IMG/VR virus record: IMGVR_UViG_3300032321_001382
DNA: 64,000 bases
Origin: a virus
Taxonomy: Duplodnaviria > Heunggongvirae > Uroviricota > Caudoviricetes
Strand: one strand, 5' to 3'
Shown: piece after piece, positions 8,787 through 25,888 of the stretch
Layout of the letters: each line of letters opens with the position of its first letter
How positions within the stretch are numbered: the first letter of the stretch is position 1
Notes under the pieces: model-generated
Seen by the model: the letters and a program-made list of their open reading frames with translations, nothing else
What the model was told of the DNA's origin: nothing
Database searches by the model: none
Translations under genes and position numbers: made by a program

Positions 8787-9044
8787 ATGAATAAAAAAAT
8801 TATAATTATAACTTCGTCTGTATTAGGAGCAGCTATATTGGGATTTTTTGCATATAGACTATATTCTAGGTGGAATAAAGAAGTAATAAGCGATGGCAAC
8901 ACTACTATTTTGGTTTCAAAAAATGAACCTAGTAATGTTGAAGTAGTTGATTCTTCTGGAGAAGCTATTGGAGATGTTAAAGAAACAACATATCCAGAAG
9001 ACTTACAACAATTTGAAATTCAAAGCGGAATGGGAGACTATTAA
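8787..9044 (+). CDS. N-terminally anchored small protein
   Basis: 85 aa; IIIITSSVLGAAILGFFAYRLY TM. Confidence 0.45.
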   Translation: MNKKIIIITSSVLGAAILGFFAYRLYSRWNKEVISDGNTTILVSKNEPSNVEVVDSSGEAIGDVKETTYPEDLQQFEIQSGMGDY

Positions 9045-9056
9045 AATATATATATT

Positions 9057-9581: not shown

Positions 9582-9591
9582 AAAAAATATT

Positions 9592-9894
9592 ATGGTAAAT
9601 TTTATTGATGAAGAAGGCTATGTGATTCCAGAACCTCCAATTCCAGAAGAAATGCATCCTTATGACCCTATAGATGATAGTTGGTTAAAAAGAATGACAG
9701 ATTCTGGTGTAGTTCGTCCTGATGATTTAATTACACCTACTCCTATGGCAGTATCTTCAGCGGTTGAAACACCTCCTCAAGTAGAAACTATCTTAGGAAA
9801 TGGGTTAACAAATTCTCAGAAATGGTCTTGGGTAATAGGTCTTACTTTTGCGGCTTGGGCTTTATTATATTGGTCTCAAAAAAAATCAAATTAA
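9592..9894 (+). CDS. C-terminally anchored acidic/Pro-rich protein
   Basis: 100 aa; C-terminal WSWVIGLTFAAWALLYWSQKK. Confidence 0.5.
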   Translation: MVNFIDEEGYVIPEPPIPEEMHPYDPIDDSWLKRMTDSGVVRPDDLITPTPMAVSSAVETPPQVETILGNGLTNSQKWSWVIGLTFAAWALLYWSQKKSN

Positions 9895-10349
9895 TGTCAA
9901 AAAGTACAACTTTAATAGTAGCGGCTATAGGTTTGGGTGGATTAGGCTATTTCCTTTATAAAAAAGGGTTATTTTCTAACAAATCGGCAACTTCAGTAGT
10001 GACAGATACTAAAGTAACACCAAATCCCGCCCCAAATCCAACTATAAAAAACCCTATAACTTGCCCTAGTGGTTCTAAGTTGCAGTTGGTGGACATTAAT
10101 TGTAATGGTGCTGATTGTGAGGTGCATTGTGTGGCAATACCAGCCCCTCCAGAGAGAAAAATAATGCCAATAGACCCAATAGTAAATATGTACCCAATAG
10201 ACCCTATTGAGGTTGTAATAGACCCTTATGTTGGTAAGCCATCTTTACAGAATCAAGTTCCAGTAACTACATACACAAACGACCCATTTATTAATAATAA
10301 CAATAATTGGTCAGTGAATAAGAATCTTAATCAATTATTATATTTATAA
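9894..10349 (+). CDS. signal-anchor paralog family member (MSKSTTLIVAAIGLGGLGYFLYKKG) with PIDP repeats
   Basis: Track ORF 9822..10349 trimmed to the ATG at 9894, which overlaps the upstream stop as TAATG. Cys-containing ectodomain with PIDPI repeats. Confidence 0.55.
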   Translation: MSKSTTLIVAAIGLGGLGYFLYKKGLFSNKSATSVVTDTKVTPNPAPNPTIKNPITCPSGSKLQLVDINCNGADCEVHCVAIPAPPERKIMPIDPIVNMYPIDPIEVVIDPYVGKPSLQNQVPVTTYTNDPFINNNNNWSVNKNLNQLLYL

Positions 10350-10358
10350 AATAAAAAA

Positions 10359-10715
10359 ATGGAAAAAAATACAAAAATAATACTAGCAATTGCAGTAGGC
10401 GGATTGGGATATTATCTTTATAAAAAAGGATTTTTCTCAAAAAAAACAGCTAATACATCAGTGGTGACAACACCAGAAGCCGTTTCAGAACCAACATATC
10501 CAATGGGTATTGGAAAAGATGGCTCTAAATTCCCATTATCTGAAGGAGATTATGTTGCTAATGGACAAGAAACTGCTATTTTATATGGTGGCGAATTAAG
10601 ACCTATAACAGCGGCGTATGCAGCAAAATATGCGGGTGGAACTTGGGAAAGAACTAAGATTTTAGATAATATTGTATATAGTAGTATACCTCGTGGAGCG
10701 GTATTAGACGCATAA
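10359..10715 (+). CDS. signal-anchor paralog family member (MEKNTKIILAIAVGGLGYYLYKKG)
   Basis: 118 aa; the leader and N-terminus (LYKKGFFSKKTA) are near-duplicates of the upstream paralog. Confidence 0.55.
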   Translation: MEKNTKIILAIAVGGLGYYLYKKGFFSKKTANTSVVTTPEAVSEPTYPMGIGKDGSKFPLSEGDYVANGQETAILYGGELRPITAAYAAKYAGGTWERTKILDNIVYSSIPRGAVLDA

Positions 10716-10725
10716 TTTATAAAAA

Positions 10726-11226
10726 ATGAAAAAAGGTCTGACAGCATTGGCAATAGTTGGAGGTATATCCTTATTTGGATATGCTATTTATAGGTATTTT
10801 GTAAAACAAGTTGATTTATTAAAAGAATTCAGCTGGAAAGTCATTGATTTTAGTTTCGATGTGGCAGATTTGCAAGTTATAAAAGGGGTTATTAAATTTA
10901 GATTTGCAAGTATTGCTGACCTAGAACTAACAATTAGCAAATTTTACTTGGATGTTTATATAAATGGTGATAGAGTTGGTTATATTGAGGATGTAAGTAC
11001 ATTTATCATACCAGCACAAGGATATAACGATATACCATTTTCATATACTATTAATCCTCAATATGTTATAAAGAATATAGTAGATATTTTAGCTTACTCA
11101 ACTAAGTTAAAAGATGCTATTATAACCTTTGATGGATATGCTCAAGTAAAGAGTGGATTTATTAGTGCAACAATTCCAATAAAAAGTAATTGTTCTGTAA
11201 AAAATATGGAGTGTACAATGGCTTAA
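10726..11226 (+). CDS. N-terminally anchored protein
   Basis: 166 aa; LTALAIVGGISLFGYAIYRYF TM. Confidence 0.5.
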   Translation: MKKGLTALAIVGGISLFGYAIYRYFVKQVDLLKEFSWKVIDFSFDVADLQVIKGVIKFRFASIADLELTISKFYLDVYINGDRVGYIEDVSTFIIPAQGYNDIPFSYTINPQYVIKNIVDILAYSTKLKDAIITFDGYAQVKSGFISATIPIKSNCSVKNMECTMA

Positions 11227-11286
11227 ATATGATATAATTATCGTATTTTAGCAACACATATTAGTGAAATTAAAAAAAGTATAAAA

Positions 11287-11715
11287 ATGATAGATTTTAT
11301 CCAAAAAGAAACTAAAGAAATTATGTATAAGTGTTGCGAGAGATACGCAAAACAGAAGGTAAGGGGAGTACAAAGTGTTCAGTTGATACTAGGATTAGAT
11401 GAGAAGGGGAATACTTATACGATGTGTGAAGATTATGTGAGAAAAGAAAACTATGACATATTGCAAGTTCTTGGTGTTCCCGTTGACTTTTTAGGTTATA
11501 GTCAATTAGCGCCTCCTTTCATACTAAAGTCTTTAGTTAGATTTTCGGAAGAGTACAAAATACCATTAGAAAAAACTCTAGTGATGTGTGTACCAACAAA
11601 AAACGAGAAAGGCAAAAATGATATTTTGCTTTTTGTATATAAGGGTAATGAATATGTTAAAACCATAAACTTTGATGACTTGTTTAGGGAAGAAGACTTT
11701 GAGTTGCCGACATAA
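11287..11715 (+). CDS. hypothetical protein
   Basis: 142-aa ORF with no recognisable motif. Confidence 0.45.
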   Translation: MIDFIQKETKEIMYKCCERYAKQKVRGVQSVQLILGLDEKGNTYTMCEDYVRKENYDILQVLGVPVDFLGYSQLAPPFILKSLVRFSEEYKIPLEKTLVMCVPTKNEKGKNDILLFVYKGNEYVKTINFDDLFREEDFELPT

Positions 11716-11732
11716 AATAAAAATAAAATAAA

Positions 11733-11996
11733 ATGACATTTTTTACTAAAACATTAACTGAAGGAACATTCGTATTATCAGCATCTGAAGGAGCAAGCAT
11801 GATTAGTATTCAACCACAGACATCCTCTAGTTGTACTTTCATAGGAAGTGGTACATACAATGGCGCATCTTCATCTGCAATAACAATAAGTAATAATAAT
11901 ACTCTTACAATAAGCTCTTCTAGTCCAACTTCACCTCTTAATGGTATTACCATTACATGGGTAAGTGGAACTATTGATATTATTGTAGGATTTTAA
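11733..11996 (+). CDS. Ser/Thr-rich small protein immediately upstream of the giant fibre gene
   Basis: 87 aa; S/T-rich. Confidence 0.45.
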   Translation: MTFFTKTLTEGTFVLSASEGASMISIQPQTSSSCTFIGSGTYNGASSSAITISNNNTLTISSSSPTSPLNGITITWVSGTIDIIVGF

Positions 11997-12006: not shown

Positions 12007-15000
12007 ATGGCATTAACTAATTTTGGATTTACTAGTGGTGGTTGTGGAATAGATTGTGTAGGGTTAACCTCTGTGGGTTTAACTACACCAAGTGCATTTT
12101 GTGTACCCAATTCTCCATTGACAGCAAACGGCAATTTGAATTTATGTGGTGCTGGTTCTGCAACTCAATATATTAGAGGAGATGGTACCTTAGCCGATTT
12201 TCCAAATATTGGTGGGGGTGGTGGAGAGGTATTCTTTTTTAATGGCAATACTTCTCAAGGTTCTATTGGTGGAAATACATATTATCAATTAGGTACTACT
12301 GCTGGTACTGGCGCTGCTGCTAATTTTTCAGTTACTGGAGATGCGGTTTTAGCTAGATTTATCACAAATGCGAATGTTCCAAATCAAATTTTAATGCCAG
12401 CGGGTAACTGGTTCTTTTCTGCATATTTCTCAGTAACAAGTAGTGCAAGCAACCCAATTGTAACAGCTACTATTCAAAAATATAATGGTGCTACATTTAC
12501 AACATTAGCAACATCTACATCGGAAGTCATTACTAATGGAACTGGTATTGAAATATATAATTTTGCAGCTTCTATTGCTGATAGTGCTCTATTAGCTACA
12601 GATAGAATAGCAATTACATTTACTACTTCTAGTACTAGTGGTAGTACAATGACATTGTATACTGAAAATTCTCATATAAGTCAAGTTGTAAGTACTTTCC
12701 CAACAGGAATATCTACTTTAAATGGATTGACTTGCAATTCTCAAAATTTTTGTACAACTACTTGTGGTACAGATTTTACAATATGTTCTAGTGGGTCAAC
12801 TCATTGTTGGAATATTCCAAATGCCTCTTGTACATCAAGAGGTTTATTAAGTTGTACCGACTATGCTTCGTTTGCATCAAAACCAATCGTTGTTGGTTCT
12901 GGATGCAATTCTACATTAAGATGTGGTGTTAATAATTTAGCTTGTGGTATTGCTAGTGCCTCTTTAGGTGGATGCAATAATACTGCTAGTGGAAATTATT
13001 CATTTGTAGGTGGTGGTTTTTGTGTTAATGCGGTTGCATTAAATTCAACAATAGGAGGGGGTAGTACAATTTTAGCTAGTGGATGTGGTTCAGCAATTCT
13101 AGGTGGTAAAAGTAATACGGCTAGTGGAAATTACTCAGCTATTTTAGGTGGTCAATGTAATACAGCATCAGCTGCATTTAGTGGTGCATTTGGTTGCAAC
13201 TTAACTGCTTGTAATGCTTGTACTTTTTATACAAATAATTTATGTGCTTGTGGTAGCTTATATACTTCTGCAGTAACTAGTGGTTGTGCAGCTTGTGTTT
13301 CTACTAATGGTCAAATTATTGGGTATACTCCAACGGTTGCAACCCCAGCTATTATAGTTGTAGGGGCTGGAGCTAATTCTACAATTAGGTGTGGTGTTAA
13401 TAATACTGCTGCTGGAATTGCTGCCGCTGCTTTAGGTGGATGTAATAATTCAGCTGTTGGGGCTAATACATTTGTAGGTGGCGGTAATTGTAATATTGCT
13501 TGTAACGCTTGTAGTATTGTTGTTGGTGGTCTATCTAACATATCTTGTGCCGCTTATTCATTCATAGGTGGTGGTAATCTTAATTGCACTGACACTGGGG
13601 TTGCCGCAGTTGTTGTTGGTGGTACGAGTAATTCAGCCCCTAGTGCTTGTACATTTATAGGTGGAGGTCAAGGCAATTCAACTCAAGGTATATATTCATC
13701 TATAACTGGCGGTTATCTTAACACAACTAATGGCGCTTGTTCAAATGTAGGTGGTGGATTTAATAACATAGCTAGATGTGCGCTTTCAAGCGTATTAGGT
13801 GGAACTGGTAACACAGCTTGTGCAAACTGTTCAGTTGTATTAGGTGGTTCTAATAACGCAACACGAGAAACTGGAGCATTTTCTGCCGTATTAGGTGGAA
13901 GTGGTAATCAGGCTTGTTGCAATTATACTGCCGTATTTGGATGCAATATGTGTAATACACAGCCTTGTACTTTTATGGCTAACAACTTTGTTGTTGGCGA
14001 CTTTGTTGGTTGTGGTGGGTGTTCTTTAGCCTTAGATGCTAATGGAAAAATATGCCTTGGTGCGGCTGCATCTCCTTCAATTATAGTTGCTGGTGCTGGA
14101 GCTAATTCAACAATAAGATGTGGTGTTAATAATACTGCTGCTGGCATTGCTGGTGCTGCATTAGGTGGATGTAATAATTCAGCTATTGGGGTAAATGGAT
14201 TTGTAGGTGGCGGTAATTGTAATATTTCTTGTGGTGCTTGTTCTTCAGTATTAGGTGGATTTACTAATAAAGCTTGTGGGGCTTTTTCAAGTGTAGGTGG
14301 TGGTAGAAGTAACACATCAACTGGATGTGATTCATCAATAGGTGGTGGTGCTAGTAACACAGCTAGTGCTTATAGGTCAACAATAGGTGGTGGTGGTTCT
14401 AATACAATCAATAGTGGTACTGCAACAACAATTGGTGGTGGTAGAAGTAATACTATTACAACTGGATTTGGTGATTCAACAATTGCGGGTGGTAGAAGTA
14501 ATACAATCTCTTCTACATACGGCTCAACAATAGGTGGAGGTTGTTCTAATGTAATAAGTGGTAGTAGTTCAGTAATAAGTGGAGGTTATGGTGGTAATAC
14601 CGCTTCTACATATACAGTGATTGGTGGTGGTCTTTATAATTGTATAGGCGGTACTGGAGCTTGGGGTGCTGTACTTAGTGGTGTGAATAATTGTATGTGT
14701 GCTGGTAATGTATTTTCAGTAATTGGTGGTGGTAATGCACATATTATTTGTAATAGTGTTTGTGGTGGAGCGATATTTGGTGGTAAAGCAAATACGGCAT
14801 CGTGTAATTATTCTTCTATATTAGGAGGTTTAACTAATAGAACTGATGGAGTTTACTCTGCTGTATTAGGTGGTTGTAACAATACGGCATCTTGTAATTA
14901 TACTGGTGTATTTGGTTGTAATTTATGCAATACGCAAGCGTGTACATTTATGTCTAACAACTTTGTTGTAGGCGACTTTGTAGGCTGTGGTGGTTGTTCA

Positions 15001-18000
15001 CTTGCCTTAGATGCTAATGGTAAAATGTGTATTGGAGCAGCTGCTTCTTCTATTATAGTTGTAGGTGCTGGAACTAATTCTACGGTTAGATGTGGTGTTA
15101 GTAATTCAACTTGTGGTACTGCTAGTGCGGCACTAGGTGGGTGTAATAATTCTGCTTCAGCAAATTATGGATTTATAGGTGGGGGTAATTGTAATAGTGC
15201 AGCTGGAACATTTTCTGCCGTAGTTGGTGGGTGTAATAATTGTGCAGCTAGTAATAGAGATTTCGTTGGTGGTGGTAGTGGTAACACAGCATCAGGAACT
15301 TATAGTTTTGTTGGTGGTGGGTGTAATAATTCAGTTAGTGTCTGTGGAAGTAATTCCGTTATAGTTGGTGGACAAAACAATAGTGCAACTGGTGGTAGAG
15401 GATTTGTTGGCGGTGGTTTATGTAACACTTCATCAGGAAATTGTTCTTTTGTAGGTGGTGGATTTACTAATATAGCTTGTGGAGTTTTTTCATTCGTAGG
15501 TGGGGGTTGTAATAACACAGCTTATGGAAGTAGGTCAACAATAGTTGGTGGATGTTGTAACATAATTTGCGGTTTTAATTCATTTATAGGTGGCGGTGCT
15601 TTAAACACTACAATAGATTCTACTTCAACAATTGTGGGGGGTTCAAATAATTTACTTGCTTGTGCTATTTCATTTATAGGTGGAGGTAATTGTAATGTAA
15701 GTTGTCAATTTCAATCAGTTATAGTTGGTGGTACTCAAAACATAATTGGTAGTAATTTCAATCATTGTCATTCATTTATAGGTGGAGGTAATTTTAATTT
15801 AGTTTGTGGCACAGCTTCTAGTGTAGTTGGTGGTTGCTGCAATAGTGCTTGTAATACTCATTCTGCCGTATTAGGTGGGTGTGGTAATAATGCATCTTGT
15901 AATTACACTGGTGTATTTGGTTGTAATATGTGTAACACACAGCCTTGTACTTTTATGTCTAACAACTTTGTTGTAGGCGACTTTGTAGGATGTGGTGGGT
16001 GTTCTTTAGCTTTAGATGCTAATGGTAAAATGTGTATTGGAGCTGGTGGTGGTGGTGGAATTATAGTTTTAGGTGCTGGATGCAATTCTACTTTAAGATG
16101 TGGTGTCAATAATGCCACTAGTGGTGCATATAGTGGTGCTCTTGCTGGTACTTGTAATGTAGTTTCTGGAGCTTGTTCATTTATAGGAGGAGGAAAAATA
16201 AACACAAGTAGTAATTCATATTCTTCAGTTTTAGGTGGTTTATGTAATTGTGCTGGAGGATTTGGAAGTTCAACTGTCAGTGGTTATAAAAATTGCTCTA
16301 CTGGTAGATATGCTACTATTTTAGGAGGTAATCAAAATACTAACTCTTCATATTATTCATCAATAGCTGGTGGACAACAAAACTTAATATCAAATAGTTA
16401 TAATTCAAATACTGGTGCGGGGTACTATAATCGAATTATTGATTCAAACTTTAGTGTTGTTGCGGGAGGTTATATAAATCAAATTTTTTCATCAATCCAA
16501 AGTGGTATTTTAGGTGGTGGTAGAAATAGAATATGTTGTGGTTGTGTAAACTCTACGATTAGTGGGTATTATGGCTGTCTAAATAATAGTAGTTTTGGAC
16601 AAATTGGCTCTGGTTCTTACAATTGTCAACAATGTGCTTGTAGAAGTACAATTTTAAATGGATGCTATAATAAAATAGGTGGTACTGGTGGTTGTTGCAC
16701 TTTAAATTCCTTAATTGGTGGTGGTGCTTGTAATATTATTTGTTATAGTGATGGTGGTTGTTTTTCTCCAACTTGTAATACTTCTTATGGCGCTATTTTA
16801 AATGGTTGTAATAATAACACTTTTGGTAATTACTCACTAATAGGTAATGGTCTTTGTAATATAGTAAATACTTCATCTTCTTTAACAAATTATGCTGTAT
16901 TAAATCAATGTGTTACTAGTTTTTGCGTTAGTGGTGATTATACTACTCAGTTTTGTGCTGGAAAATGTATAATATTAACTGGTGGTACTGGTGGTTGTAA
17001 TTCATTTGTATGCAATACATCTTCTACATTCTATTTAAGTGGTGATGAGACTTCAACATATATACCTTCTGTTAGACCAGTAATTTTCTATAGTACAATT
17101 AATCCAACTTTTAACTTGTATTGTACTACTGGTTTTAGTAATGATATTTGTGTTTTTGGAGATGTTACTTGTGACTTAACTCAATGGCAAAGATGTGTTT
17201 TATTTTGTAATACAATAACTGGATGTAATTGTGGTAGTTTAGCAATTAATGGTGTAGCTTCTGGATATGGAGGAAATACTTGTTATGTTGGTCCTTATAC
17301 TGAAATTTATGTACCAGCTGGAGTTGATTCTTCATTATATGATACAGTAACATTATGTCAATATATATCTGGTAGTGGATGTGTAACTGCCTCAAGTTTT
17401 GATGGAACAAATACAGCTATAACTGCATCAAACTTTTATGCTGGTGTAAATACTTGTTATAATTGTGTAAATTATTTACCATTTAATACTTGTGTTCCAG
17501 TATCAAGTTCATCTTTTGATTGCGTAAATACTTGTGTTACAATATCTGGTTATTTGTATTGTACTGGTATTTATTCCAATGCAAGCATTTGTTCAGTAAC
17601 TGCTAGTAATTATTCTAGTGTAATAAATGGACAATGTAATATTGTAAGTGGTAACTACTCTACAGCCAATGGATTATGTAATAATGTAAGTGTAAATTAT
17701 TCAAGTGCATTTGGTTGTAATTTATGCAACACTCAGGCTTGTACTTTAATGGCTAACAACTTCGTTATTGGTGACTTTGTAGGCTGTGGTGGATGTTCTT
17801 TAGCTTTAGATGCTAATGGTAAAATGTGTATTGGAGCTGGTGGAGGCGGTGGTGGAATCATCATTGCTGGTAGTGGAACTGATTCTACATTAAGGTGTGG
17901 TGTTGGTAACACTGCAAGTGCAATTGGTAGTGCTTCTTTAGGTGGTTGTAACAACACTGCTAGTGGATGTTATTCATTTGTAGGTGGTGGACAATGTAAT

Positions 18001-21000
18001 ATTGCGAATGCTTGTAATTCTATTATTGTAGGTGGGTGTTGTAATTCACTAAACTATGCTTGTGGTGCATTTATTGGAGGTGGGTATTGTAATTCAAGTA
18101 ATAGTGAATGTTCTGTAATAAGTGGTGGTTATTGCAATGAAATATTATGCAGTAGTAATTCTAATATAAATGGTGGTTTTTGCAATATTATAAATAATTC
18201 TTCTACTAATTCATCAATATTAGGTGGTAGTGGTAATATAGCTTGTGGCGCTTATACTGGTGTATTTGGATGTAACTTAACCAATTGTCAGGCTTGTACG
18301 TTTATGTCTAACAACTTTGTTGTAGGCGACTTCGTTGGTTGCGGTGGATGTTCACTTGCCTTAGATGCTAGTGGTAAAATGTGTATTGGTGCTGGTGGCG
18401 GAGGTGGTGGTATCATTATTTTAGGTACTGGAACTTCTTCTACTATAAGATGTGGGGTTTGTAATGATGCTTTTGGTAATGGTGGTTCTTCATTAAGTGG
18501 ATGTTATAACATTAGTTGTGGTGATTACAATATAATAGGTGGTGGTAAATGTAACCAAACAACTAGTGGTCTTTATAATGTGATAGTTGGTGGTACTCAA
18601 AACTGCGTTTCTGCTTTTGTTAATACAGCCTTCATAGGTGGTGGTCAAGGAAATCAAGTTAATGGAAGTAATGGTACTGTTGTTGGCGGAACTTTCAATT
18701 CTTCTGTTTGTGATGCATTTGTGGGTGGTGGTAATGCTAACACCGCAAGTGGACAATATAGTATAATTGTAGGTGGTCATCAAAACGGTGCTCTTTGTAA
18801 TCACGCATTTATTGGTAGTGGTAACAATCATTTTAATTGTGGTTGTAACTCGGTTATAGTTGGTGGTGCTGAACACCTTGTTTGTGGAAATTATGCATTT
18901 GTAGGTGGTGGTTTATGTAACTCAGCTTGTGGAAATTGTTCAATTGTAGTTGGTGGTTGTAATAATACAGCTTCTTGTAATTATAGTTCAATAGTAGGCG
19001 GACATAATAATATTTCATCAAATCAACATTCTTTTGTTGGAGCTGGTGATTTTAATATTTCTTGTGGTGATTCATCATCAGTAGTTGCTGGTAGATGCAA
19101 TTGTGCTACTTGTGGATATGCTTTTGTTGGTGCTGGTCTTTGTAATACTGCTAGTGGTTGCGCTTCTTCTATTATTGCTGGTAGCGTAAACACTGCAAGC
19201 GGATATTATTCAACAATTAGTGGCGGATATTTAAACACTGCAAGTGCAGCTTATTCAACAATTAGTGGTGGTCATAGTAATATTGCTTCTGGATGCCACA
19301 CATTTATTGGGGCTGGTGATTTTAACTGTGGTTTAAATTACCAATCAATAGTCGTTGGTGGTCAATGCAACATTTCTTGTGGAGATTTTGCATCTATTGT
19401 TGGTGGTTTATGTAATATATCAAGTGGAACTTATTCATCTGTAGTTGGTGGCGGTACAAATAGTGCTAGTGGAGGTTATTCATTCATTGGTGGTGGGTGC
19501 GCTAACTCAGTAATTTGTGGTAATTCTAGTGTTGTAGGAGGTAGTAATAATACAAATTGCCAATCACTTTCGTTCATTGGTGGTGGTCTACTTAATACAA
19601 TAAATATAAATTTAACTGAGTCTAGTTCAGTTCTTGTTGGTGGACAATCTAATACACTTAATGGAAATGCTGCTGTTATTGTAGGTGGTCAATGTAATAC
19701 GACTTGTGGTAATTGTTCATTTGTAGGTGGTGGTAGTGGGAATACGGCATTATGTGATTATAGTGGTGTATTTGGATGTAACTTATGTAACACTCAGGCT
19801 TGTACGTTTATGTCTAACAACTTTGTTGTTGGTGACTTTGTAGGTTGTGGTGGATGTAATTTAGCTTTAGATGCTAATGGGAAAATGTGCCTTGGTGCTG
19901 CTGTATCTGCTTCTATTATAATTTTAGGTTCTGGATGTAATTCTACTTTAAGATGTGGTGTAAATAATTTATCTTCTGGTGTTGCTAGTGCCTCTTTAGC
20001 TGGTTGTAATAACATAGCTAGTGCATTTTATACATTTGTCGGTGGTGGGTGTTGTAACTTGGCTTGTGGTAATTTCTCATCAATTTTGGGTGGATTCTGC
20101 AATACAGCTTCTGGTTATTATGCTGGAGTATATGGTTGTAACTTAACAAATACTCAGTCTTGTACATTTATGTCAAACAACTTTGTTGTTGGTGACTTTA
20201 TACCTAATGGTGGATGTGGATGTGTAGTAAGTATAGATATTAATGGTAAAATGTGCTTACAAGCAGCTTGTGGTGGCGGTGGTGGTGTAAGTCAAATCAC
20301 TGCTGGAACTGGTATTACTATAAGTCCAGCTTGTGGAACTGGTAATGTAACTATTTGTTCTACTGGAAGTGGACCAATGGTATCAGGAAGTGGTTATTGC
20401 TCAATATATGGTAATGGAGGTAGTAATTCAGCTAATGGAAATTATGCATTTGTTGGTGGTGGTCAAGGTAATAATGTAACGGGTCCATACACTACAATTG
20501 GTGGTGGTAGAAGTAATTCTATATCAGTTAGTTTTGGTGATTCAACAATTGCTGGTGGTAGAGGGAATAATATTTATGACAATGCATCAACAATTGGTGG
20601 TGGATGTTCTAATGCTATATGTAGTCCTAGTTCTGTAATTTCTGGTGGTTATGGTGGATGTACTTCTTCTGCATATACGGTAATAGGCGGTGGTCTTTAT
20701 AATGTAGTAGGCGGTGGTGGTGCTTGGGGTGCGGTATTAAGTGGTGTGTCAAATTGTATGTGTGCTGGTAATGTATTCTCGGTAATTGGTGGTGGTAATG
20801 CACATATTATTTGCAATAGTGTTTGTGGTGGAGCCATATTTGGTGGTAAAGCAAATACAGCATCTTGTAATTATTCTGCTATATTAGGTGGTTTAACTAA
20901 TAGAACTGATGGAGTTTACTCTGCTGTATTAGGTGGTTGTAACAATACGGCATCTTGTAATTATACTGGTGTATTTGGTTGTAACTTATGTAACACTCAG

Positions 21001-23748
21001 GCTTGTACATTTATGGCTAACAACTTCGTTGTTGGTGATTTCGTTTCAAGTGGTGGATGTGGTTGTAATGTTAGTATTGATGCAAATGGTAAAATGTGTT
21101 TACAATCTGCTGCTGCTGCTAGCGTAATGAACGTTGGTTGTGGAACTTGCTCTATTGTTGGTAGTGGTTGTGGTAATCTTGCTTGTGGTGCTTGTTCATT
21201 TGTAGGTGGTGGACAATTTAACACAGCAGTTTGTGGTTTTTCTACAATTAGTGGGGGATATTGTAACGCTGCTAGTGGAAATAATTCATTTATAGGAAGT
21301 GGTGAATGTAACTTAGCTGGCGCTTCTAATTCAATTGTAGTTGGCGGTAGTTGTAATACAGCTTGTGGAAATTGTGCAATTGTAGTAGGTGGTTTTAATA
21401 ACCAATCAACTTGTTGTTATTCATTCATTGGTGGTGGAAATTGTAATTTATCTTGTGGATGTTCCTCATATATAGGTGGTGGTTCAGAAAACACCGCTAG
21501 TGGTAAATACTCTGTCATAAATGGTGGTTGTAATAATACTGCAAATTTCTTAGGAACTGTAGGTGGTGGTTCTTGTAACACTGCAAGTTGTTACTCAACC
21601 ATAGGTGGAGGTCGTATAAATACTGCTTATCAATATTCTACTATTGCTGGGGGTAATGGAAATACAGCTTGCAATGGTTCATTCGTAGGTGGTGGTAATA
21701 CTAATAGTGCTAGTGGATGTTATGGATTTATAGGTGCTGGTAGAAACAACATAGATTGTGGTCTTTGTTCTTCAATCGTAGGTGGATGTTTTAACTTTAC
21801 TTGTTGTAATGGTACATTTATAGGTAGTGGAAGCTGTAATATAGCTTGTGGAAATTGTTCAATTGTAGTTGGTGGTTGTAATAACCTATCAACTTGTTGT
21901 TATTCATTCGTTGGTGGTGGTGAGTGTAATATATCTTGTGGAGATTACTCAGCTGTATTAGGTGGTCAATGCAACATTGTTGCTGTACCTTATGCAGCGG
22001 TATTTGGTTGTAATGTTTGTAATTTGAATAGTTGCACTTTTGCTGCCAATAACTTCACAGTTCAAGACTTCTGCGCTTGTGGTGGATGTGGTTGCAATGT
22101 GAGTATTGACGCTACTGGTAAACTTTGCTTACAAGCTGGTGGTGGCGGTGGTGGTGTTATGGCTGCTGGTACTGGAATTTGTTCTATTGTTGGTAGTGGG
22201 GATAATAATATAGCTTGTGGAAATTGTTCTTTTGCTGGTGGTGGTTGTAATAACCAATCAACTTGTAATTATTCATTTATAGGCGGTGGTGAATGTAATA
22301 TATCTGGTGATTGTAATTCATTCATAGGAAATGGTTTTTGTAACACAGCTAGTGGTAAATATGCTGTAGTGGTTAGTGGTTGTTGTAATAGTGCTTACAA
22401 TCTTGGATTTGTAGGTGGCGGAACTTGTAATATAGCTTGTAATTATGCAACAATAGGTGGTGGTCGTTACAATAATGCTTCAGGTAATAGTTCATTCGTA
22501 GGTGGTGGAGATAGTAGTAATGCATCAGGATTCTTTTCAGTTGTTAGTGGTGGACTTAGTAATACCTCTAGTGGATGTTATTCTGCTATCGTAGGTGGAT
22601 GTTGCAACTTTACTTGTGCGTGTAATTCATTTATTGGTGGAGGTCAAAACAATACAGCTTGTGGAAATTGCTCATTTGTAGGGGGTGGTTGTAATAATCA
22701 AGCTACTAATGACTATTCAATAGTTGTAGGTGGTGATTGTAGTTATTCTTGCGGGTCTCGTTCAGTTGTAGTTGGTGGTTGTAATAACGTAGCAAGTTGT
22801 GTATCTTCATTCGTAGGTGGTGGTCAATATAATACATCTAGTTCATGTTTTTCATTCATAGGAAATGGATGTTGTAACACTGCTAGTGGTAAATATGCTG
22901 TTGTAGTAAGTGGTAAAAATAATAGTGCTAATTATCTTGGATTTGTAGGTGGTGGATGTTGCAACACAGCTAGTTGTTATTCAATTGTCGTTGGAGGTCG
23001 TTGTAATACAGCCCAGCCTTATAGTTATGTAATAGGTGGTTTTGCAAATACTGCTTGTTGTAGTGGATTCATTGGTAGTGGTACTACAAATACTACTTTA
23101 GGTTCACTTTCATTTGTAGGTAGTGGGTGTTGCAATACAGCTAGTTGTAATTATTCATTCGTTGGTAATGGTGCATTTAATATTGCTTCAGGATGCGAAG
23201 CATTCATAGGAAGTGGATATTGTAACACTGCTTGCGGAAATTGTTCAGCTATATTAGGTGGATGTAATAACGTAGCTAGTGCTGCTTGGAGTGGTGCATT
23301 TGGTTGCAACTTAAATGCTTGTAATGCTTGTACATTCTATACTAATAACATCTTCTCTTGTGGTGATATTTATGCTACTGGTAACATAACTGCTTGTTCT
23401 GATTCTAGGGTTAAAGAAAACATAAGACCAATTGAGAATGTATTATCTAGAATTAATTGTTCAAGAGGTGTTGTATATGATAGAATTGACACTAAGGCTA
23501 AGAATGAAATTGGTTTCATTGCTCAAGAATTAGAGGTTAACTTCCCAGAACTTGTTAAATCTGATAATGGAGATAATAAGTTTGTAAACTACCAAAGTGG
23601 TGTTGCCGTAGTATTTGAGGGATTAAAAGAGCAACAAAAAATTATTAACAAACAAGGTGAGACTATTACTAAACAAGGTGAGGAAATAAAGCAACTTAAG
23701 GCTGATGTTATAGAACTTAAAACTATAATCAATGGCTTTACCAAGTAG
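12007..23748 (+). CDS. giant (3913 aa) Cys/Gly-rich repeat fibre or spike protein with C-terminal Peptidase_S74 intramolecular-chaperone domain
   Basis: One uninterrupted 11.7-kb ORF. Hundreds of 14-16-aa repeats of the type GGG.CN.ASG.YS.VGG (Hep_Hag / YadA-head-like). Repeat blocks are separated by about 11 copies of a conserved module of roughly 50 aa, GVFGCNLCNTQACTFMSNNFVVGDFVGCGGCSLALDANGKMC. The C-terminus SDSRVKENI...IGFIAQELEVNFPELV is the S74 autoproteolytic chaperone signature. Confidence 0.85.
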   Translation: MALTNFGFTSGGCGIDCVGLTSVGLTTPSAFCVPNSPLTANGNLNLCGAGSATQYIRGDGTLADFPNIGGGGGEVFFFNGNTSQGSIGGNTYYQLGTTAGTGAAANFSVTGDAVLARFITNANVPNQILMPAGNWFFSAYFSVTSSASNPIVTATIQKYNGATFTTLATSTSEVITNGTGIEIYNFAASIADSALLATDRIAITFTTSSTSGSTMTLYTENSHISQVVSTFPTGISTLNGLTCNSQNFCTTTCGTDFTICSSGSTHCWNIPNASCTSRGLLSCTDYASFASKPIVVGSGCNSTLRCGVNNLACGIASASLGGCNNTASGNYSFVGGGFCVNAVALNSTIGGGSTILASGCGSAILGGKSNTASGNYSAILGGQCNTASAAFSGAFGCNLTACNACTFYTNNLCACGSLYTSAVTSGCAACVSTNGQIIGYTPTVATPAIIVVGAGANSTIRCGVNNTAAGIAAAALGGCNNSAVGANTFVGGGNCNIACNACSIVVGGLSNISCAAYSFIGGGNLNCTDTGVAAVVVGGTSNSAPSACTFIGGGQGNSTQGIYSSITGGYLNTTNGACSNVGGGFNNIARCALSSVLGGTGNTACANCSVVLGGSNNATRETGAFSAVLGGSGNQACCNYTAVFGCNMCNTQPCTFMANNFVVGDFVGCGGCSLALDANGKICLGAAASPSIIVAGAGANSTIRCGVNNTAAGIAGAALGGCNNSAIGVNGFVGGGNCNISCGACSSVLGGFTNKACGAFSSVGGGRSNTSTGCDSSIGGGASNTASAYRSTIGGGGSNTINSGTATTIGGGRSNTITTGFGDSTIAGGRSNTISSTYGSTIGGGCSNVISGSSSVISGGYGGNTASTYTVIGGGLYNCIGGTGAWGAVLSGVNNCMCAGNVFSVIGGGNAHIICNSVCGGAIFGGKANTASCNYSSILGGLTNRTDGVYSAVLGGCNNTASCNYTGVFGCNLCNTQACTFMSNNFVVGDFVGCGGCSLALDANGKMCIGAAASSIIVVGAGTNSTVRCGVSNSTCGTASAALGGCNNSASANYGFIGGGNCNSAAGTFSAVVGGCNNCAASNRDFVGGGSGNTASGTYSFVGGGCNNSVSVCGSNSVIVGGQNNSATGGRGFVGGGLCNTSSGNCSFVGGGFTNIACGVFSFVGGGCNNTAYGSRSTIVGGCCNIICGFNSFIGGGALNTTIDSTSTIVGGSNNLLACAISFIGGGNCNVSCQFQSVIVGGTQNIIGSNFNHCHSFIGGGNFNLVCGTASSVVGGCCNSACNTHSAVLGGCGNNASCNYTGVFGCNMCNTQPCTFMSNNFVVGDFVGCGGCSLALDANGKMCIGAGGGGGIIVLGAGCNSTLRCGVNNATSGAYSGALAGTCNVVSGACSFIGGGKINTSSNSYSSVLGGLCNCAGGFGSSTVSGYKNCSTGRYATILGGNQNTNSSYYSSIAGGQQNLISNSYNSNTGAGYYNRIIDSNFSVVAGGYINQIFSSIQSGILGGGRNRICCGCVNSTISGYYGCLNNSSFGQIGSGSYNCQQCACRSTILNGCYNKIGGTGGCCTLNSLIGGGACNIICYSDGGCFSPTCNTSYGAILNGCNNNTFGNYSLIGNGLCNIVNTSSSLTNYAVLNQCVTSFCVSGDYTTQFCAGKCIILTGGTGGCNSFVCNTSSTFYLSGDETSTYIPSVRPVIFYSTINPTFNLYCTTGFSNDICVFGDVTCDLTQWQRCVLFCNTITGCNCGSLAINGVASGYGGNTCYVGPYTEIYVPAGVDSSLYDTVTLCQYISGSGCVTASSFDGTNTAITASNFYAGVNTCYNCVNYLPFNTCVPVSSSSFDCVNTCVTISGYLYCTGIYSNASICSVTASNYSSVINGQCNIVSGNYSTANGLCNNVSVNYSSAFGCNLCNTQACTLMANNFVIGDFVGCGGCSLALDANGKMCIGAGGGGGGIIIAGSGTDSTLRCGVGNTASAIGSASLGGCNNTASGCYSFVGGGQCNIANACNSIIVGGCCNSLNYACGAFIGGGYCNSSNSECSVISGGYCNEILCSSNSNINGGFCNIINNSSTNSSILGGSGNIACGAYTGVFGCNLTNCQACTFMSNNFVVGDFVGCGGCSLALDASGKMCIGAGGGGGGIIILGTGTSSTIRCGVCNDAFGNGGSSLSGCYNISCGDYNIIGGGKCNQTTSGLYNVIVGGTQNCVSAFVNTAFIGGGQGNQVNGSNGTVVGGTFNSSVCDAFVGGGNANTASGQYSIIVGGHQNGALCNHAFIGSGNNHFNCGCNSVIVGGAEHLVCGNYAFVGGGLCNSACGNCSIVVGGCNNTASCNYSSIVGGHNNISSNQHSFVGAGDFNISCGDSSSVVAGRCNCATCGYAFVGAGLCNTASGCASSIIAGSVNTASGYYSTISGGYLNTASAAYSTISGGHSNIASGCHTFIGAGDFNCGLNYQSIVVGGQCNISCGDFASIVGGLCNISSGTYSSVVGGGTNSASGGYSFIGGGCANSVICGNSSVVGGSNNTNCQSLSFIGGGLLNTININLTESSSVLVGGQSNTLNGNAAVIVGGQCNTTCGNCSFVGGGSGNTALCDYSGVFGCNLCNTQACTFMSNNFVVGDFVGCGGCNLALDANGKMCLGAAVSASIIILGSGCNSTLRCGVNNLSSGVASASLAGCNNIASAFYTFVGGGCCNLACGNFSSILGGFCNTASGYYAGVYGCNLTNTQSCTFMSNNFVVGDFIPNGGCGCVVSIDINGKMCLQAACGGGGGVSQITAGTGITISPACGTGNVTICSTGSGPMVSGSGYCSIYGNGGSNSANGNYAFVGGGQGNNVTGPYTTIGGGRSNSISVSFGDSTIAGGRGNNIYDNASTIGGGCSNAICSPSSVISGGYGGCTSSAYTVIGGGLYNVVGGGGAWGAVLSGVSNCMCAGNVFSVIGGGNAHIICNSVCGGAIFGGKANTASCNYSAILGGLTNRTDGVYSAVLGGCNNTASCNYTGVFGCNLCNTQACTFMANNFVVGDFVSSGGCGCNVSIDANGKMCLQSAAAASVMNVGCGTCSIVGSGCGNLACGACSFVGGGQFNTAVCGFSTISGGYCNAASGNNSFIGSGECNLAGASNSIVVGGSCNTACGNCAIVVGGFNNQSTCCYSFIGGGNCNLSCGCSSYIGGGSENTASGKYSVINGGCNNTANFLGTVGGGSCNTASCYSTIGGGRINTAYQYSTIAGGNGNTACNGSFVGGGNTNSASGCYGFIGAGRNNIDCGLCSSIVGGCFNFTCCNGTFIGSGSCNIACGNCSIVVGGCNNLSTCCYSFVGGGECNISCGDYSAVLGGQCNIVAVPYAAVFGCNVCNLNSCTFAANNFTVQDFCACGGCGCNVSIDATGKLCLQAGGGGGGVMAAGTGICSIVGSGDNNIACGNCSFAGGGCNNQSTCNYSFIGGGECNISGDCNSFIGNGFCNTASGKYAVVVSGCCNSAYNLGFVGGGTCNIACNYATIGGGRYNNASGNSSFVGGGDSSNASGFFSVVSGGLSNTSSGCYSAIVGGCCNFTCACNSFIGGGQNNTACGNCSFVGGGCNNQATNDYSIVVGGDCSYSCGSRSVVVGGCNNVASCVSSFVGGGQYNTSSSCFSFIGNGCCNTASGKYAVVVSGKNNSANYLGFVGGGCCNTASCYSIVVGGRCNTAQPYSYVIGGFANTACCSGFIGSGTTNTTLGSLSFVGSGCCNTASCNYSFVGNGAFNIASGCEAFIGSGYCNTACGNCSAILGGCNNVASAAWSGAFGCNLNACNACTFYTNNIFSCGDIYATGNITACSDSRVKENIRPIENVLSRINCSRGVVYDRIDTKAKNEIGFIAQELEVNFPELVKSDNGDNKFVNYQSGVAVVFEGLKEQQKIINKQGETITKQGEEIKQLKADVIELKTIINGFTK
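14431..14990 (+). repeat. 560-bp intragenic duplication inside the giant fibre gene (copy A; copy B at about 20491..21050)
   Basis: Protein segments TIGGGRSNTITTGFGDSTIAGGRSN...GGLYN.(I/V)GG.GAWGAVLSGV.NCMCAGNVFSVIGGGNAHIICNSVCGGAIFGGKANTASCNYS.ILGGLTNRTDGVYSAVLGGCNNTASCNYTGVFGCNLCNTQACTFM are almost identical between the two positions, and the DNA is nearly identical over several hundred bp. Confidence 0.75.
23398..23745 (+). other. Peptidase_S74 intramolecular chaperone domain (C-terminus of giant fibre)
   Basis: SDSRVKENIRPIENVLSRI...VYDRID...EIGFIAQELEVNFPELV, then a coiled-coil tail. Confidence 0.8.
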
Positions 23749-25888
23749 TGGACCACTCAGTTTTCAAGATATTGCTACAGAATTAGGGGTTAATCCCCCT
23801 CTTTCTTTAGAGGCTATGAGTACAACTGCTGGGTTTACAGCGCCCTTTGCTGTTACTGATTTTTATGGTTATAGTGGAGCTGCTCCTGATGTGGTAACAA
23901 GTGGACTAGTTTTATATTTAGATGCTGGTCAAACAACTAGTTATTCTGGAAGTGGTAGTACATGGACTGATTTAAGTGGTTATGGAAATAATGCAACACT
24001 AGTTAATAATCCGACATTTAGTAGTTCTTATGGGGGTAACCTTGAATTTCCTTATTCAAATGTTTATGGTCAAATTAATGATGCAGCTAGCTTACAATTT
24101 GGCACTGGTGATTTTACTATTAGTTTATGGGAGTATCCAATAGTAGTAAATGATGGAAGTAATCAAAGGACTATACTATCTAAAAACTATACTGGCTTTG
24201 AAATATTTATTTATCAATCTATTCTTAGAGGATATTTTGGTGGTGTCAATCAACTTGAAGGCACAACAACATTAACGGCTAATATTTGGTATAATTTTGT
24301 ATTTGTAAGAAGTGCTGGTGTAATTACTTCTTATATAAATACTATACAAGATGGACAATATGCGTATGCGGGTGATGTTAGTAATATAGGTACGGGTCTA
24401 TATATAAATATAAGACCATCTACACCATATTATGGAAATCAAAATATGTCAAATATTTTACTTTACAATAGAGCATTAACTAATGCTGAAGTTGTTCAAA
24501 ACTACAATGCTTTTGCTTCTCGATTCAGTTATACACCTTTGCCAATTACCTCTGGATTAACATTATTATTAGATGCCGAAAATACTTCTAGTTATTCTGG
24601 AAGTGGAACAAGCTGGAATGATGTAAGTGGTAATAACAATAATGGTACATTTAATGTTGCCCCAACATACAATGCTGGTGGTTATTTTCAACTAAATGGA
24701 ACTGAACTTGTACAAAGTTTCCCAAGTAGCATATCTCAAACATTGAGTTCAAAAACTATAATAGTATGGTTTAATATAGCAGATACTACTAGAAGAGGTT
24801 TAATTGCAACTAGAGATAGTAATAGTAATGGTGGATGGGCATTTGTTGTAAATAGAACTGCTACTGGAAATCTAACTTTTTTCAATGTAGCTGGTGGTGG
24901 TTTAATTGAAAAAGCGGGTGGAATAACCCCTTCTAATTGGTATATGGCTACACTAACATATAACTATTCTACACTCGAGGCTGAATTATTTGTAAATGGA
25001 ATATCAGTAGGTACTCAATCCTCTTTAGGCGCTGGTAGTAATGTTGCATTTAATGGAGTAGTTGCTGCTGAACAAGAAAATGATTTTGGAGGAGCATTTG
25101 CGGGAGGATATAGTATAGTTAACATATACAATAGAGTTTTAACTTCATCTGAAATCATATTCAACTATAATGCTTATGCCTCTAGATTTAATTTGACACC
25201 AATTCCCGTTAGTCCAATACAAGATGGATTAGTATTATATTTGAATGCAAGTAACCCTTCAAGTTATTCAGGAAGTGGTACAACTTGGTATGATTTAAGC
25301 CCTAGTGGAAATAATGTATCATTAACTAATGGACCAACTTATAGTAGTTCTAATGGTGGATATTTAGAATTTAATGGATTTAGTCAATATGGTGTTTTAT
25401 CCAATCCAGCAGCTCTTCCTATTGGTAATGAAATGTCTATGGGTTTTTGGTCTTATGGTTTAAGTGTAGCAAATACATATTTGTTTTGTGGTTTAGGGGT
25501 TGGTAATAGAACTGTAAATGTACATTTACCTTGGGGCGATTACAATGTTTATTGGGATTGTGGAAATTCTGGAGGTTCGTTTAACAGACTATCCACATAT
25601 CTAGGTTCAAGCTATCAAGGATGGCATTATTGGATGTTTACCAAAAATGCCTCTACTGGTATTATGAACATATATAAAGATGGTGTATTATTAATATCAG
25701 GAGGTGGATATGTTTATACAATTAACCAAAGTGATTATGCTACAATAGCTAAAGCTGGTCCTAGTGCTCCTGAATATTGGAATGGTTATTTAGCTCAAGT
25801 TCAAGTATATAATAGAGAATTGAGTGCTGGGGAAGTAGTAACTAACTATAATATTTCTGCATCCCAATATGGATTAACACCAATTTAA
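23732..25888 (+). CDS. three-fold LamG/concanavalin-A-like lectin-domain protein (candidate distal receptor-binding protein)
   Basis: 718 aa. Three repeats begin L(V/T)L(Y/L)LDA..(T/P)SSYSGSG(S/T).W.D(L/V)SG.(G/N)NN. and end with a YNR.L(T/S)..E(V/I)..NYNA.ASRF tail typical of the Laminin_G_3 jelly roll. The start overlaps the giant ORF by 17 nt in another frame. Confidence 0.7.
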   Translation: MALPSSGPLSFQDIATELGVNPPLSLEAMSTTAGFTAPFAVTDFYGYSGAAPDVVTSGLVLYLDAGQTTSYSGSGSTWTDLSGYGNNATLVNNPTFSSSYGGNLEFPYSNVYGQINDAASLQFGTGDFTISLWEYPIVVNDGSNQRTILSKNYTGFEIFIYQSILRGYFGGVNQLEGTTTLTANIWYNFVFVRSAGVITSYINTIQDGQYAYAGDVSNIGTGLYINIRPSTPYYGNQNMSNILLYNRALTNAEVVQNYNAFASRFSYTPLPITSGLTLLLDAENTSSYSGSGTSWNDVSGNNNNGTFNVAPTYNAGGYFQLNGTELVQSFPSSISQTLSSKTIIVWFNIADTTRRGLIATRDSNSNGGWAFVVNRTATGNLTFFNVAGGGLIEKAGGITPSNWYMATLTYNYSTLEAELFVNGISVGTQSSLGAGSNVAFNGVVAAEQENDFGGAFAGGYSIVNIYNRVLTSSEIIFNYNAYASRFNLTPIPVSPIQDGLVLYLNASNPSSYSGSGTTWYDLSPSGNNVSLTNGPTYSSSNGGYLEFNGFSQYGVLSNPAALPIGNEMSMGFWSYGLSVANTYLFCGLGVGNRTVNVHLPWGDYNVYWDCGNSGGSFNRLSTYLGSSYQGWHYWMFTKNASTGIMNIYKDGVLLISGGGYVYTINQSDYATIAKAGPSAPEYWNGYLAQVQVYNRELSAGEVVTNYNISASQYGLTPI

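Follow-up and report, generated by a model that had tools for sequence, protein, structure and literature searches.

A 3913-residue cysteine-rich beta-roll protein with a single Peptidase_S74 chaperone: a probable segmented receptor-binding fibre of an uncultured bacterial virus

An open reading frame (ORF) of 11.7 kb in the genome of an uncultured virus raises the question of whether so long and repetitive a stretch constitutes one real gene and, if so, what its product is, how it grew and why it carries so many cysteines. The frame lies at 12007-23748 on the plus strand of a 64,000-nucleotide stretch of the IMG/VR record IMGVR_UViG_3300032321_001382, hereafter the window. The window is the final 64 kb of a 120,245-bp contig and its end runs on into another scaffold, hence the genome must exceed 130 kb. 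On the evidence given below, the frame is likely one real gene that encodes a giant homotrimeric receptor-binding fibre, divided into segments, of a large (>130 kb) uncultured bacterial virus, and that was built by fusion and duplication.

A single gene with a beta-roll body

The ORF list and its translation gave a protein of 3913 amino acids (aa), running from ATG to stop with no internal stops and no N in the sequence (12007-23748; all features of the gene lie on the plus strand). The same 3913-aa protein was recorded on two long contigs, scaffold_6 (118 kb) and the 120,245-bp contig. Since the frame is open for 11.7 kb in DNA of 31-38% GC, and since the identical protein occurs on both contigs, an open frame by chance was excluded. 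A first-pass annotation, made from the sequence of the window without database searches, had called one gene of this length with several hundred cysteines, and both statements hold: the frame is uninterrupted and 334 Cys were counted. The protein consists of 18.5% Gly, 12.0% Ser, 11.4% Asn and 8.5% Cys, with only 0.4% His and 1.8% Asp.

Residue autocorrelation revealed sharp peaks at lags of 15, 30 and 45 (0.24 at lag 15, against a background of approximately 0.09), and the DNA repeat families of the gene were phased at 45 nt, with family D1 alone comprising 47 copies. A repeat hidden Markov model (HMM) detected about 155 rungs with the consensus S1-x-[IV]3-x-G5-G6-x7-x8-N9-x10-A11-x12-G13-x14-Y15, in agreement with the Cys-containing repeats of 14-16 aa that had been described at first pass. 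As delimited by the HMM, a structural model, Foldseek and a profile search, the body (12886-23292) comprises about 150 rungs of 15 aa in 11 segments.

Segment 4 (aa 1012-1352) was modelled by AlphaFold2 from an alignment of the internal units and 98 homologues. The model had a predicted local distance difference test (pLDDT) score of 89.3 and a predicted template-modelling score of 0.86, with short strands at rung positions 2-3, 7 and 10-11 and no helices. Foldseek searches against the PDB placed the head of UspA1 first (3pr7_A, E 8e-7), followed by the heads of CbpF, BpaC and AtaA and, lower down, a ryegrass ice-binding beta-roll. A profile of the unit alignment, searched against PDB sequences, retrieved UspA1 3PR7 (E 4.8e-52), 3NTN (E 1.6e-17) and 3ULT (E 1.4e-7). 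The model and these matches identify the repeat body as a left-handed beta-roll, homologous to the heads of trimeric autotransporters of the UspA1/YadA type.

The repeats had been labelled Hep_Hag-like, and a structural comparison of one unit with YadA-type heads had been suggested. The fold class was borne out, with the UspA1 head 3PR7 as the best match, but the Pfam family Hep_Hag (PF05658) itself was matched neither by the whole protein at E <= 0.01 nor by unit 4 at E <= 1. LbR_Ice_bind (PF21300) was the sole Pfam repeat model matched by unit 4, at 24.6 bits and under its cut-off of 30, and several homologues are annotated as LbR_Ice_bind or UspA1_rep. In the Pfam scan of the whole protein, Peptidase_S74 alone was above threshold. 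The ice-binding protein of Lolium perenne (3ULT, LbR_Ice_bind) is alike in the geometry of its beta-roll rungs, but the plant protein is monomeric and without the Cys-rich pattern, and nothing in the viral protein suggests ice binding.

The likeness to trimeric autotransporters (UspA1 of Moraxella catarrhalis, 3PR7 and 3NTN; BpaC; AtaA; BoaA; CbpF of Fusobacterium) includes both the rungs of 14-16 residues and the GG..N.A.G..S motif. Large trimeric autotransporter adhesins also chain several heads along one trimeric fibre. Unlike these, the giant protein is encoded by a virus, has no Pfam match to the YadA membrane-anchor barrel or to coiled-coil stalk and neck families, ends in Peptidase_S74, joins its heads by a relic fibre cap and a Gly/Ala hinge, and contains 8.5% Cys. 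Nor is there an evident signal peptide, as its N-terminus (MALTNFGFTSGGCGIDC..) showed no basic or hydrophobic leader, by inspection only. Rung detection was interrupted in segment 5 by a Cys-rich, non-repetitive insert of ~245 aa (aa ~1625-1869; 16879-17613), for which neither a Pfam nor a PDB sequence match was found.

Both ends of the protein resemble those of phage fibres. The conserved N-terminal module (aa 1-290; 12007-12876), defined by its homologues, an AlphaFold2 model and Foldseek, contains a VGL..P.AF.V.NSP.T..G / QYIRGDGTLADFP motif, a Gly5 tract and a jelly-roll beta-sandwich core at aa ~75-230. At least 160 proteins carry a homologue of this module at their start, with 42-66% identity, and the 120 of them that were listed are 330-520 aa long; some end in Phage_tail_C and some begin with Mtd_N, as small phage proteins of tail-tip and tropism type. 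The model of the module had a pLDDT of 81.5, exceeding 90 in the core, and Foldseek matched the core to jelly rolls of galactose-binding-like, TNF-like-lectin and carbohydrate-binding-module type and to cyanophage tail parts.

At the other end, a Peptidase_S74 intramolecular chaperone (aa 3798-3913; 23398-23748), recognised by Pfam and tblastn, starts with SDSRVKENI and finishes in a heptad-like tail. The Pfam match (PF13884) covers aa 3798-3851 and the full model (1-58) at 44.4 bits against a cut-off of 22 (E 2e-11), so that the single C-terminal chaperone claimed earlier was confirmed. In the motif S3798-D-S-R-V-K3803-E-N-I, Ser and Lys are five residues apart and align with those of a 1420-aa paralogue in the window and of nine relatives; we take S3798 and K3803 to be the Ser-Lys cleavage dyad, as in endosialidase. 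By tblastn, the C-terminal 149 aa matched tail-fibre genes in 964 phage records at 30-40% identity. Like the S74 fibres and tailspikes of known phages (K1F endosialidase, the T5 pb1 L-shaped fibre), the protein thus has a C-terminal S74 domain above the Pfam threshold with the Ser..Lys motif. It differs from them in that its body is a beta-roll of the trimeric-autotransporter type rather than a triple beta-helix or coiled coil, in that one chaperone would serve 11 concatenated bodies, and in that its internal pre-cleavage caps are without a chaperone.

Junctions and the growth of the gene

A module with the pattern FGC..C[ST]F..N was found exactly 11 times, at aa 395, 644, 969, 1304, 1902, 2087, 2589, 2709, 2990, 3333 and 3765, which matches the estimate of about 11 units. 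The spacing of 200-330 aa given with that estimate was too narrow, as segment lengths ranged from 120 to 598 aa. Each of the 10 internal modules leads into a hinge of Gly5-6 or of Ala/Ser and then a restart motif, II[VLA]G[AST]G.[NDS]ST[ILV]RCGV.N in this protein; both elements had already been noted. The internal cap can be written FGC..C[ST]F..N...[DS].[NST]G, ahead of the Gly/Ala hinge and restart, at all 10 junctions. Two cap types (A, VGCGGCSLALD..; B, GGCGC.VSID..) and two restart types are distributed in a mosaic pattern.

The first junction (aa 393-476; 13183-13434) consists of the cap variant AFGCNLTACNACTFYTNN, which is also the terminal cap variant, a linker and a restart, and its DNA is 80% identical to 23281-23380 (repeat family D11). 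Cap and restart are separated by the hinges AAASPS, AAASS and AVSAS in junctions 2 (aa 642-719; 13930-14163), 3 (aa 967-1043; 14905-15135) and 7 (aa 2587-2664; 19765-19998), respectively, by Gly5 in junction 4 (aa 1302-1379; 15910-16143) and by Gly6 in junctions 5 (aa 1900-1978; 17704-17940) and 6 (aa 2085-2163; 18259-18495). The last three junctions have type-B caps. In junction 8 (aa 2707-2800; 20125-20406), a fusion scar, the cap GGCGCVVSIDINGKMCLQ is followed by Gly5 and then VSQITAGTGITISPACGTGNVTICSTGSG; junction 9 (aa 2988-3064; 20968-21198) has the hinge AAAAS and the alternative restart VMNVGCGTCSIVGSG, and junction 10 (aa 3331-3408; 21997-22230) a Gly6 hinge and the alternative restart. 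The terminal cap (aa 3763-3797; 23293-23397), AFGCNLNACNACTFYTNNIFSCGDIYATGNITAC, stands directly before the predicted cleavage serine.

The position of the terminal cap is shared with free-standing fibres. The relatives P0047 and P0180 and the 1420-aa paralogue all end as ..FGC..AC[ST]F[MA]SNQL..C..[AT]NGVIV.. followed immediately by SD[CS]RLKTNI, which places the module directly before the S74 cleavage serine; its internal counterpart in the giant protein is FGCNLCNTQACTFMSNNFVVGDFVGCGGCSLALDANGKMCIGA followed by GGGGG. As the same module precedes the S74 serine in relatives, each internal junction is the relic of a mature fibre C-terminus. The paralogue itself (27481-31743, plus strand) comprises an adaptor (MPNVPISSLP..), a Pro-free collagen-like G-x-S/T stalk, two beta-roll units with one junction, and S74, with 4.3% Cys. 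It had been described as a single-unit relative, which does not fit, given its two units joined by the same junction and its collagen-like stalk.

Two further observations bear on fusion. At aa 2756, the sequence GGGGG-VSQITAGTGITISPACGTGNVTICSTGSG..PMVSGSGYCSIYGNG matches what follows the N-terminal adaptor and poly-Gly in a 467-aa S74 fibre of the relative L009, of which aa 40-362 have their best blastp match in the giant protein at aa 2735-3023 (42% identity); likewise, aa 20-91 of the 1420-aa fibre match best at aa 2740-2811. The region around aa ~2756 is thus a scar left by a fibre gene whose adaptor was lost, and it corresponds to the stretch that follows the adaptor in a free-standing S74 fibre. 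P0180 (2124 aa, 6.9% Cys) comprises two complete tandem fibres, each with N-terminal module, roll and cap, and a single S74. The proposal that fibre bodies were concatenated and share one S74 is thus supported by the cap before the S74 serine, by the scar and by the tandem arrangement of P0180.

Duplication within the gene was also evident. Internal units are 43-75% identical to one another (43-61% relative to unit 4), compared with no more than 45% for outside homologues. The largest internal duplication, seen in both DNA and protein alignments, pairs 14425-15120 with 20491-21192 (706 aligned bp, 81% identity), and other internal DNA repeats are 67-85% identical, the longest exact repeat being 95 nt (14827/20890). 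As the internal units resemble one another more than they do any outside protein, and a segmental copy spans 706 bp, the gene grew by in-situ duplication as much as by fusion: fibre genes were joined end to end, internal S74 and adaptor parts were lost, and segments were duplicated in place. A near-identical duplication of ~560 bp had been reported; the duplication exists, but it is only 81% identical over its 706 bp, and the others reach just 67-85%. At these identities, no evidence was found that the gene is at present a recombination hotspot with phase-like length variation, as had been suggested, whereas the number of units does differ among related viruses on an evolutionary scale.

An exhaustive search of representatives retrieved 12,137 relatives of the repeat. 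Many of these are 2000-3858 aa in length, and those were nearly all Cys-poor and without the junction. The junction-bearing clade (P0009, P0126, P0133, P0139, P0177, P0199, P0246, P0262, L009, L010-L025 and P0180) has 1-4 units, 500-2546 aa and 3-10% Cys, hence the eleven units and 3913 aa studied here are the extreme of the family as sampled. These fibres of uncultured viruses share with the giant protein the cap/hinge/restart junction, the termini and partly syntenic genomes, and differ in their unit number and in that many end in another domain. The fibres in the same slot of syntenic relatives are of 502 and 721 aa (L006) and of about 1700 and 467 aa (L009). Cys content among relatives is continuous from 0 to 10%, with a median of 1.25% in the 120 closest proteins of the unit search. 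A megablast search with the 12-kb flank and tblastn searches with the unit and N-terminal module gave no matches in the phage collection, though the low-complexity filter probably hid matches to the repeat.

The general kind of protein, a beta-roll fibre with S74, is already catalogued by automatic annotation; it is the chaining and the cysteine load that are extreme. In BFVD, the same fold occurs in proteins of 'uncultured Caudovirales phage' annotated as LbR_YadA-like, Mtd_N, collagen or S74. The combination of fold and domains recurs in UniProt entries of uncultured Caudovirales (A0A6J5KVZ3 and A0A6J7X9E5; LbR_YadA-like, Major tropism determinant N-terminal, Peptidase S74) and in NCBI entries named 'tail fiber domain-containing protein' from metagenome-assembled genomes of Bacteroidia and Luteolibacter, but these are of 200-1000 aa and mostly single-unit. 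In the literature searched, no description was found of chained units or of the junction module, and no direct precedent for cysteine-rich or YadA-like phage fibres.

Several observations on the relatives stand apart from the origin of the gene. In L009, two called genes of 1142 and 592 aa (6621-11779) belong to a single fibre gene of about 1700 aa that a run of N, placed exactly inside a junction module, has divided; such repeats break short-read scaffolds and inflate gene counts. P0126, P0177, P0199, P0246, P0262 and the 592-aa product of L009 (B592) end not in S74 but in a conserved domain of ~100 aa (..HSFVESPT.GDNIYR..LPDYY..LN..D.V.VSP..HFG..YG....NSDGEY.VL.IGTRKD..). This domain had no Pfam match in the two members scanned (P0262 and P0177) and may be an alternative C-terminal folding or receptor-binding domain. 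The idea that the giant gene is an expanded copy of the 502-aa gene in the same slot of L006 was rejected, as the termini differ. A diversity-generating-retroelement origin of the variable positions was dropped by reasoning, given a variable region of 11 kb and that no reverse transcriptase turned up among the ORFs scanned.

The proposed fibre and its cysteines

The fibre would be a homotrimer in which the C-terminal S74 domain nucleates trimerisation and sets the register, with folding then running from the C-terminus toward the N-terminus through all segments and junctions before S74 cleaves itself off at Ser3798. The product would be a hinged, beads-on-a-string fibre; at about 0.48 nm each, its rungs by themselves would account for a length of roughly 75 nm. 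With 11 diverged adhesive heads, it could bind the host surface in a multivalent or multi-ligand manner. The cysteines, which number 334 in each chain and about 1000 in the trimer, would be reduced in the host cytoplasm and would oxidise after lysis to intra- and inter-chain disulfides, with the conserved Cys of every cap stapling the trimer at each junction.

Within the rungs, Cys was found at positions 7, 8 and 12-15 only (12-29% each) and never at scaffold positions. Between paralogous units, Cys was kept in 54% of cases, compared with 36-40% for Ser, Ala and Thr and 78% for Gly. In the N-terminal module, all 11 aligned Cys (11/11) stand in place of Ser, Thr, Ala or Gly at sites where Cys is absent (0%) from homologues, among them a 98%-conserved Thr and an 87%-conserved Ala. 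Taken together, the alignments show the cysteines to be derived, having taken the place of small residues where the protein is variable, turns or is surface-exposed. Three proteins of the window are Cys-rich, namely the giant fibre (8.5%), an 874-aa EGF/Sushi-like protein (5.9%) and the 1420-aa fibre (4.3%); in the remaining ORFs of at least 100 aa, Cys content is 0-5.5% and almost always below 4%. As derived residues confined to surface proteins, the cysteines point to a viral fibre on which thiol chemistry outside the cell has been selected for.

There is precedent for Cys-enriched structural proteins made in the bacterial cytoplasm in the Agrobacterium phages Milano and 7-7-1 (PMC10491603, PMC12796354). 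Structural proteins of Milano contain 2.4% Cys, reported as significantly higher than in other phages (PMC10491603), and an extensive disulfide network that confers a robustness sensitive to dithiothreitol has been established experimentally in the virion (PMC10491603; PMC12796354). In Milano and 7-7-1, the enrichment is of 2.4-2.6% in capsid, neck and sheath, compared with 8.5% in a fibre with putative disulfides here. Given this precedent, the cysteines of the giant protein are unusual in number rather than in principle, and our best guess is that they most likely oxidise after lysis to cross-linking disulfides that harden the fibre.

A number of points weigh against this proposal. All data are metagenomic sequence, and the trimeric state, cleavage and folding direction are carried over by analogy from other S74 fibres. 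PHROG and Pfam scans of about 60 ORFs, covering 84 kb, recognised no capsid, portal, terminase or tail genes, so that the term 'tail' fibre draws on homology of the fibre parts only. With respect to disulfides, a search of the rungs for a pairwise signature gave none; a single Cys is present in 57 of the 157 rungs and three Cys in 19, and between paralogous units Cys interchanges freely, mostly with Ser, Gly, Asn, Ala or Thr. Significant co-occurrence of Cys was confined to the same rung (positions 12-15, odds ratio 7.8, p 7e-5; 8-15, odds ratio 4.7; 8-12, odds ratio 2.5), and this association of C8, C12 and C15 is as suggestive of a CxxxCxxC motif for metal or redox chemistry as it is of disulfide pairing. 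Among the ORFs scanned, no thiol oxidase or oxidoreductase was found.

Of the alternatives, one accepts the protein as real but not as a tail fibre, in which case it could be a capsid or vertex fibre, a whisker, or an adhesin or decoy that is not part of the virion and is set free by lysis, and the virus might be non-tailed. That no tail, portal or terminase genes were recognised in the window and its flanks fits this, as do a small HerA/FtsK-like P-loop ATPase at 182-994, the occurrence of similar beta-roll, collagen and S74 proteins in metagenomic giant-virus bins, and the fact that the giant protein is without the MPNVPIS..LVPIVQNG adaptor of its 1420-aa paralogue and relatives. We nonetheless regard it as unlikely, because the S74 terminus has its counterparts among the tail-fibre genes of 964 tailed-phage records, the N-terminal module co-occurs with Phage_tail_C and Mtd_N, the fibre of one relative lies 4 kb from a terminase-like gene, and SLT, Peptidase_M15_3 and phage lysozyme argue for a bacterial host; the hallmark genes may moreover sit in the first 56 kb of the contig, outside the 84 kb covered.

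It is similarly unlikely, in our view, that the cysteines are near-neutral, small surface residues having drifted to Cys in a low-oxygen habitat or under compositional bias. Their restriction to variable positions, their exchange with Ser, Gly, Asn, Ala and Thr and the continuous range of Cys content among relatives are what drift would produce. However, the enrichment is limited to three surface-type proteins, although the other ORFs of the window (0-5.5%) are under the same mutational regime, and several of the substitutions need two nucleotide changes at sites that are 87-98% conserved in homologues. Cys is also kept more than Ser, Ala or Thr between paralogous units, and the trait is coherent across the clade.

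The cysteines could instead serve metal or redox chemistry, with C-N-x-A-C-G-x-C triads and the Cys-rich caps binding Zn, Fe or Cu or acting as reactive thiols in an attachment that is covalent or sensitive to redox state. The within-rung association of C8, C12 and C15, the frequent odd Cys counts per rung and the conserved Cys in every cap are all compatible with this, and the fibres of T4 are a known case of metal ions on the fibre axis. Yet the triad is confined to about 7-10 of the roughly 155 rungs, most Cys standing alone; Cys is moderately conserved and exchanges with Ser, Gly and Asn, and there is no enrichment of partner residues (His 0.4%, Asp 1.8%), which makes this reading quite unlikely. 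A bolder extension, which we offer as a long shot, would make the ~1000 thiols of the trimer a chemically active device, either a metal-loaded or redox-switchable rod (CxxxCxxC motifs and caps holding Zn, Fe or Cu) or a means of covalent attachment to the host by thiol-disulfide exchange, with 11 diverged heads providing several specificities on one polypeptide and one chaperone folding a fibre 10x longer than those for which it evolved.

Finally, an assembly artefact, in which a short-read assembler stitched shorter paralogous or strain-variant fibre genes together in frame, is very improbable: the data are from metagenomes only, relatives have just 1-4 segments and the N run exactly inside a junction of L009 shows assembler trouble, but the identical 3913-aa protein is on two long contigs, the frame stays open for 11.7 kb without an N, repeats of 67-85% identity with a longest exact match of 95 nt leave little room for collapse or mis-joining, and the flanking genes are syntenic with relatives.

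Neighbouring genes, the virus and implications

The giant gene is followed by a gene for a 718-aa ConA-like lectin with three Laminin_G_3 stretches (23732-25888, plus strand), which overlaps its stop by 17 nt and is classed by PHROG as a 'virion structural protein'. The lectin is probably part of the same fibre cassette and may act with the fibre as a partner or as its distal binding protein. The 1420-aa fibre gene begins 8 nt before the end of a gene of the fatty-acid hydroxylase superfamily (26805-27488, plus strand; E 7e-25), an overlap suggesting that the two are translationally coupled; the product of the latter gene, within the fibre cassette, is a membrane di-iron hydroxylase. The stalk of the 1420-aa fibre (aa ~75-690) matched Pfam Collagen at E 1e-40 and is proline-free, with G-[ST]-S and G-x-S-[FY]-G-T-S triplets, an unusual composition for a collagen triple helix that makes it a candidate for heavy O-glycosylation.

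Genes for glycan modification were located near the cassette, at 33397-41459 (minus strand), 41965-42813 (plus strand) and 50120-50791 (minus strand). They encode an FkbM methyltransferase, a sulfotransferase, two GT9 heptosyltransferase-like proteins, GT1/GT4 glycosyltransferases (one of 896 aa), a GT2 and a pair of APS kinase and cytidylyltransferase; in L006, L008 and L009, sulfotransferase and APS kinase are kept beside the fibres. By analogy with the heptosylation of autotransporter adhesins, this toolkit may modify the Ser/Thr-rich fibres, or else host glycans. The 874-aa Cys-rich protein (55148-57772, plus strand) matched Pfam cEGF, Sushi, TIL and DUF5874, although the individually significant stretches were of Sushi only (two); it is probably surface-exposed, with animal-like disulfide-domain signatures. 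Other ORFs encode an SPFH/Band-7 domain protein (E 1e-13) and a small HNH-like protein (51028-51549 and 53176-53562, both on the minus strand), and the HerA/FtsK-like ATPase at 182-994 is of 270 aa.

Almost none of the approximately 60 ORFs scanned across the window, L001 and L003 matched PHROGs, and the virus is very divergent. Its host is taken to be bacterial because of SLT (8074-8784), Peptidase_M15_3 (L001, 1513-1998) and phage lysozyme (L003, 4376-5008). A eukaryotic giant virus, as prompted by the cEGF/Sushi/TIL protein, fatty-acid hydroxylase, sulfotransferase, glycosyltransferases and collagen, was set aside on account of SLT, Peptidase_M15_3, DUF1064 and phage lysozyme. A double-jelly-roll virus, marked by a 330-aa ORF at 5410-6402 together with the HerA-like ATPase, was also considered and dropped, as homologues of that ORF were partial matches of 190-250 aa without a known domain.

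Phage fibres that combine a beta-roll with S74 are abundant in metagenomes, whilst the literature searched offers automatic annotation only. The Cys load of 8.5% is about 3.5x the 2.4% of Milano structural proteins (PMC10491603); if it does serve cross-linking, the giant fibre would be an extreme case of post-lysis hardening, and if it serves metal or redox chemistry, this would be new for phage fibres. The modular beta-roll heads, separated by hinges, are possible scaffolds for engineered binding proteins. For the family as a whole, the giant protein and its relatives illustrate how fibres grow: bodies are fused at Gly-rich joints, the old cap is kept as a junction and the last chaperone alone is retained. 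This fusion model provides a testable account of how the length and specificity of receptor-binding proteins evolve, and raises the question of how far along a fibre one intramolecular chaperone can template the folding of a trimer.

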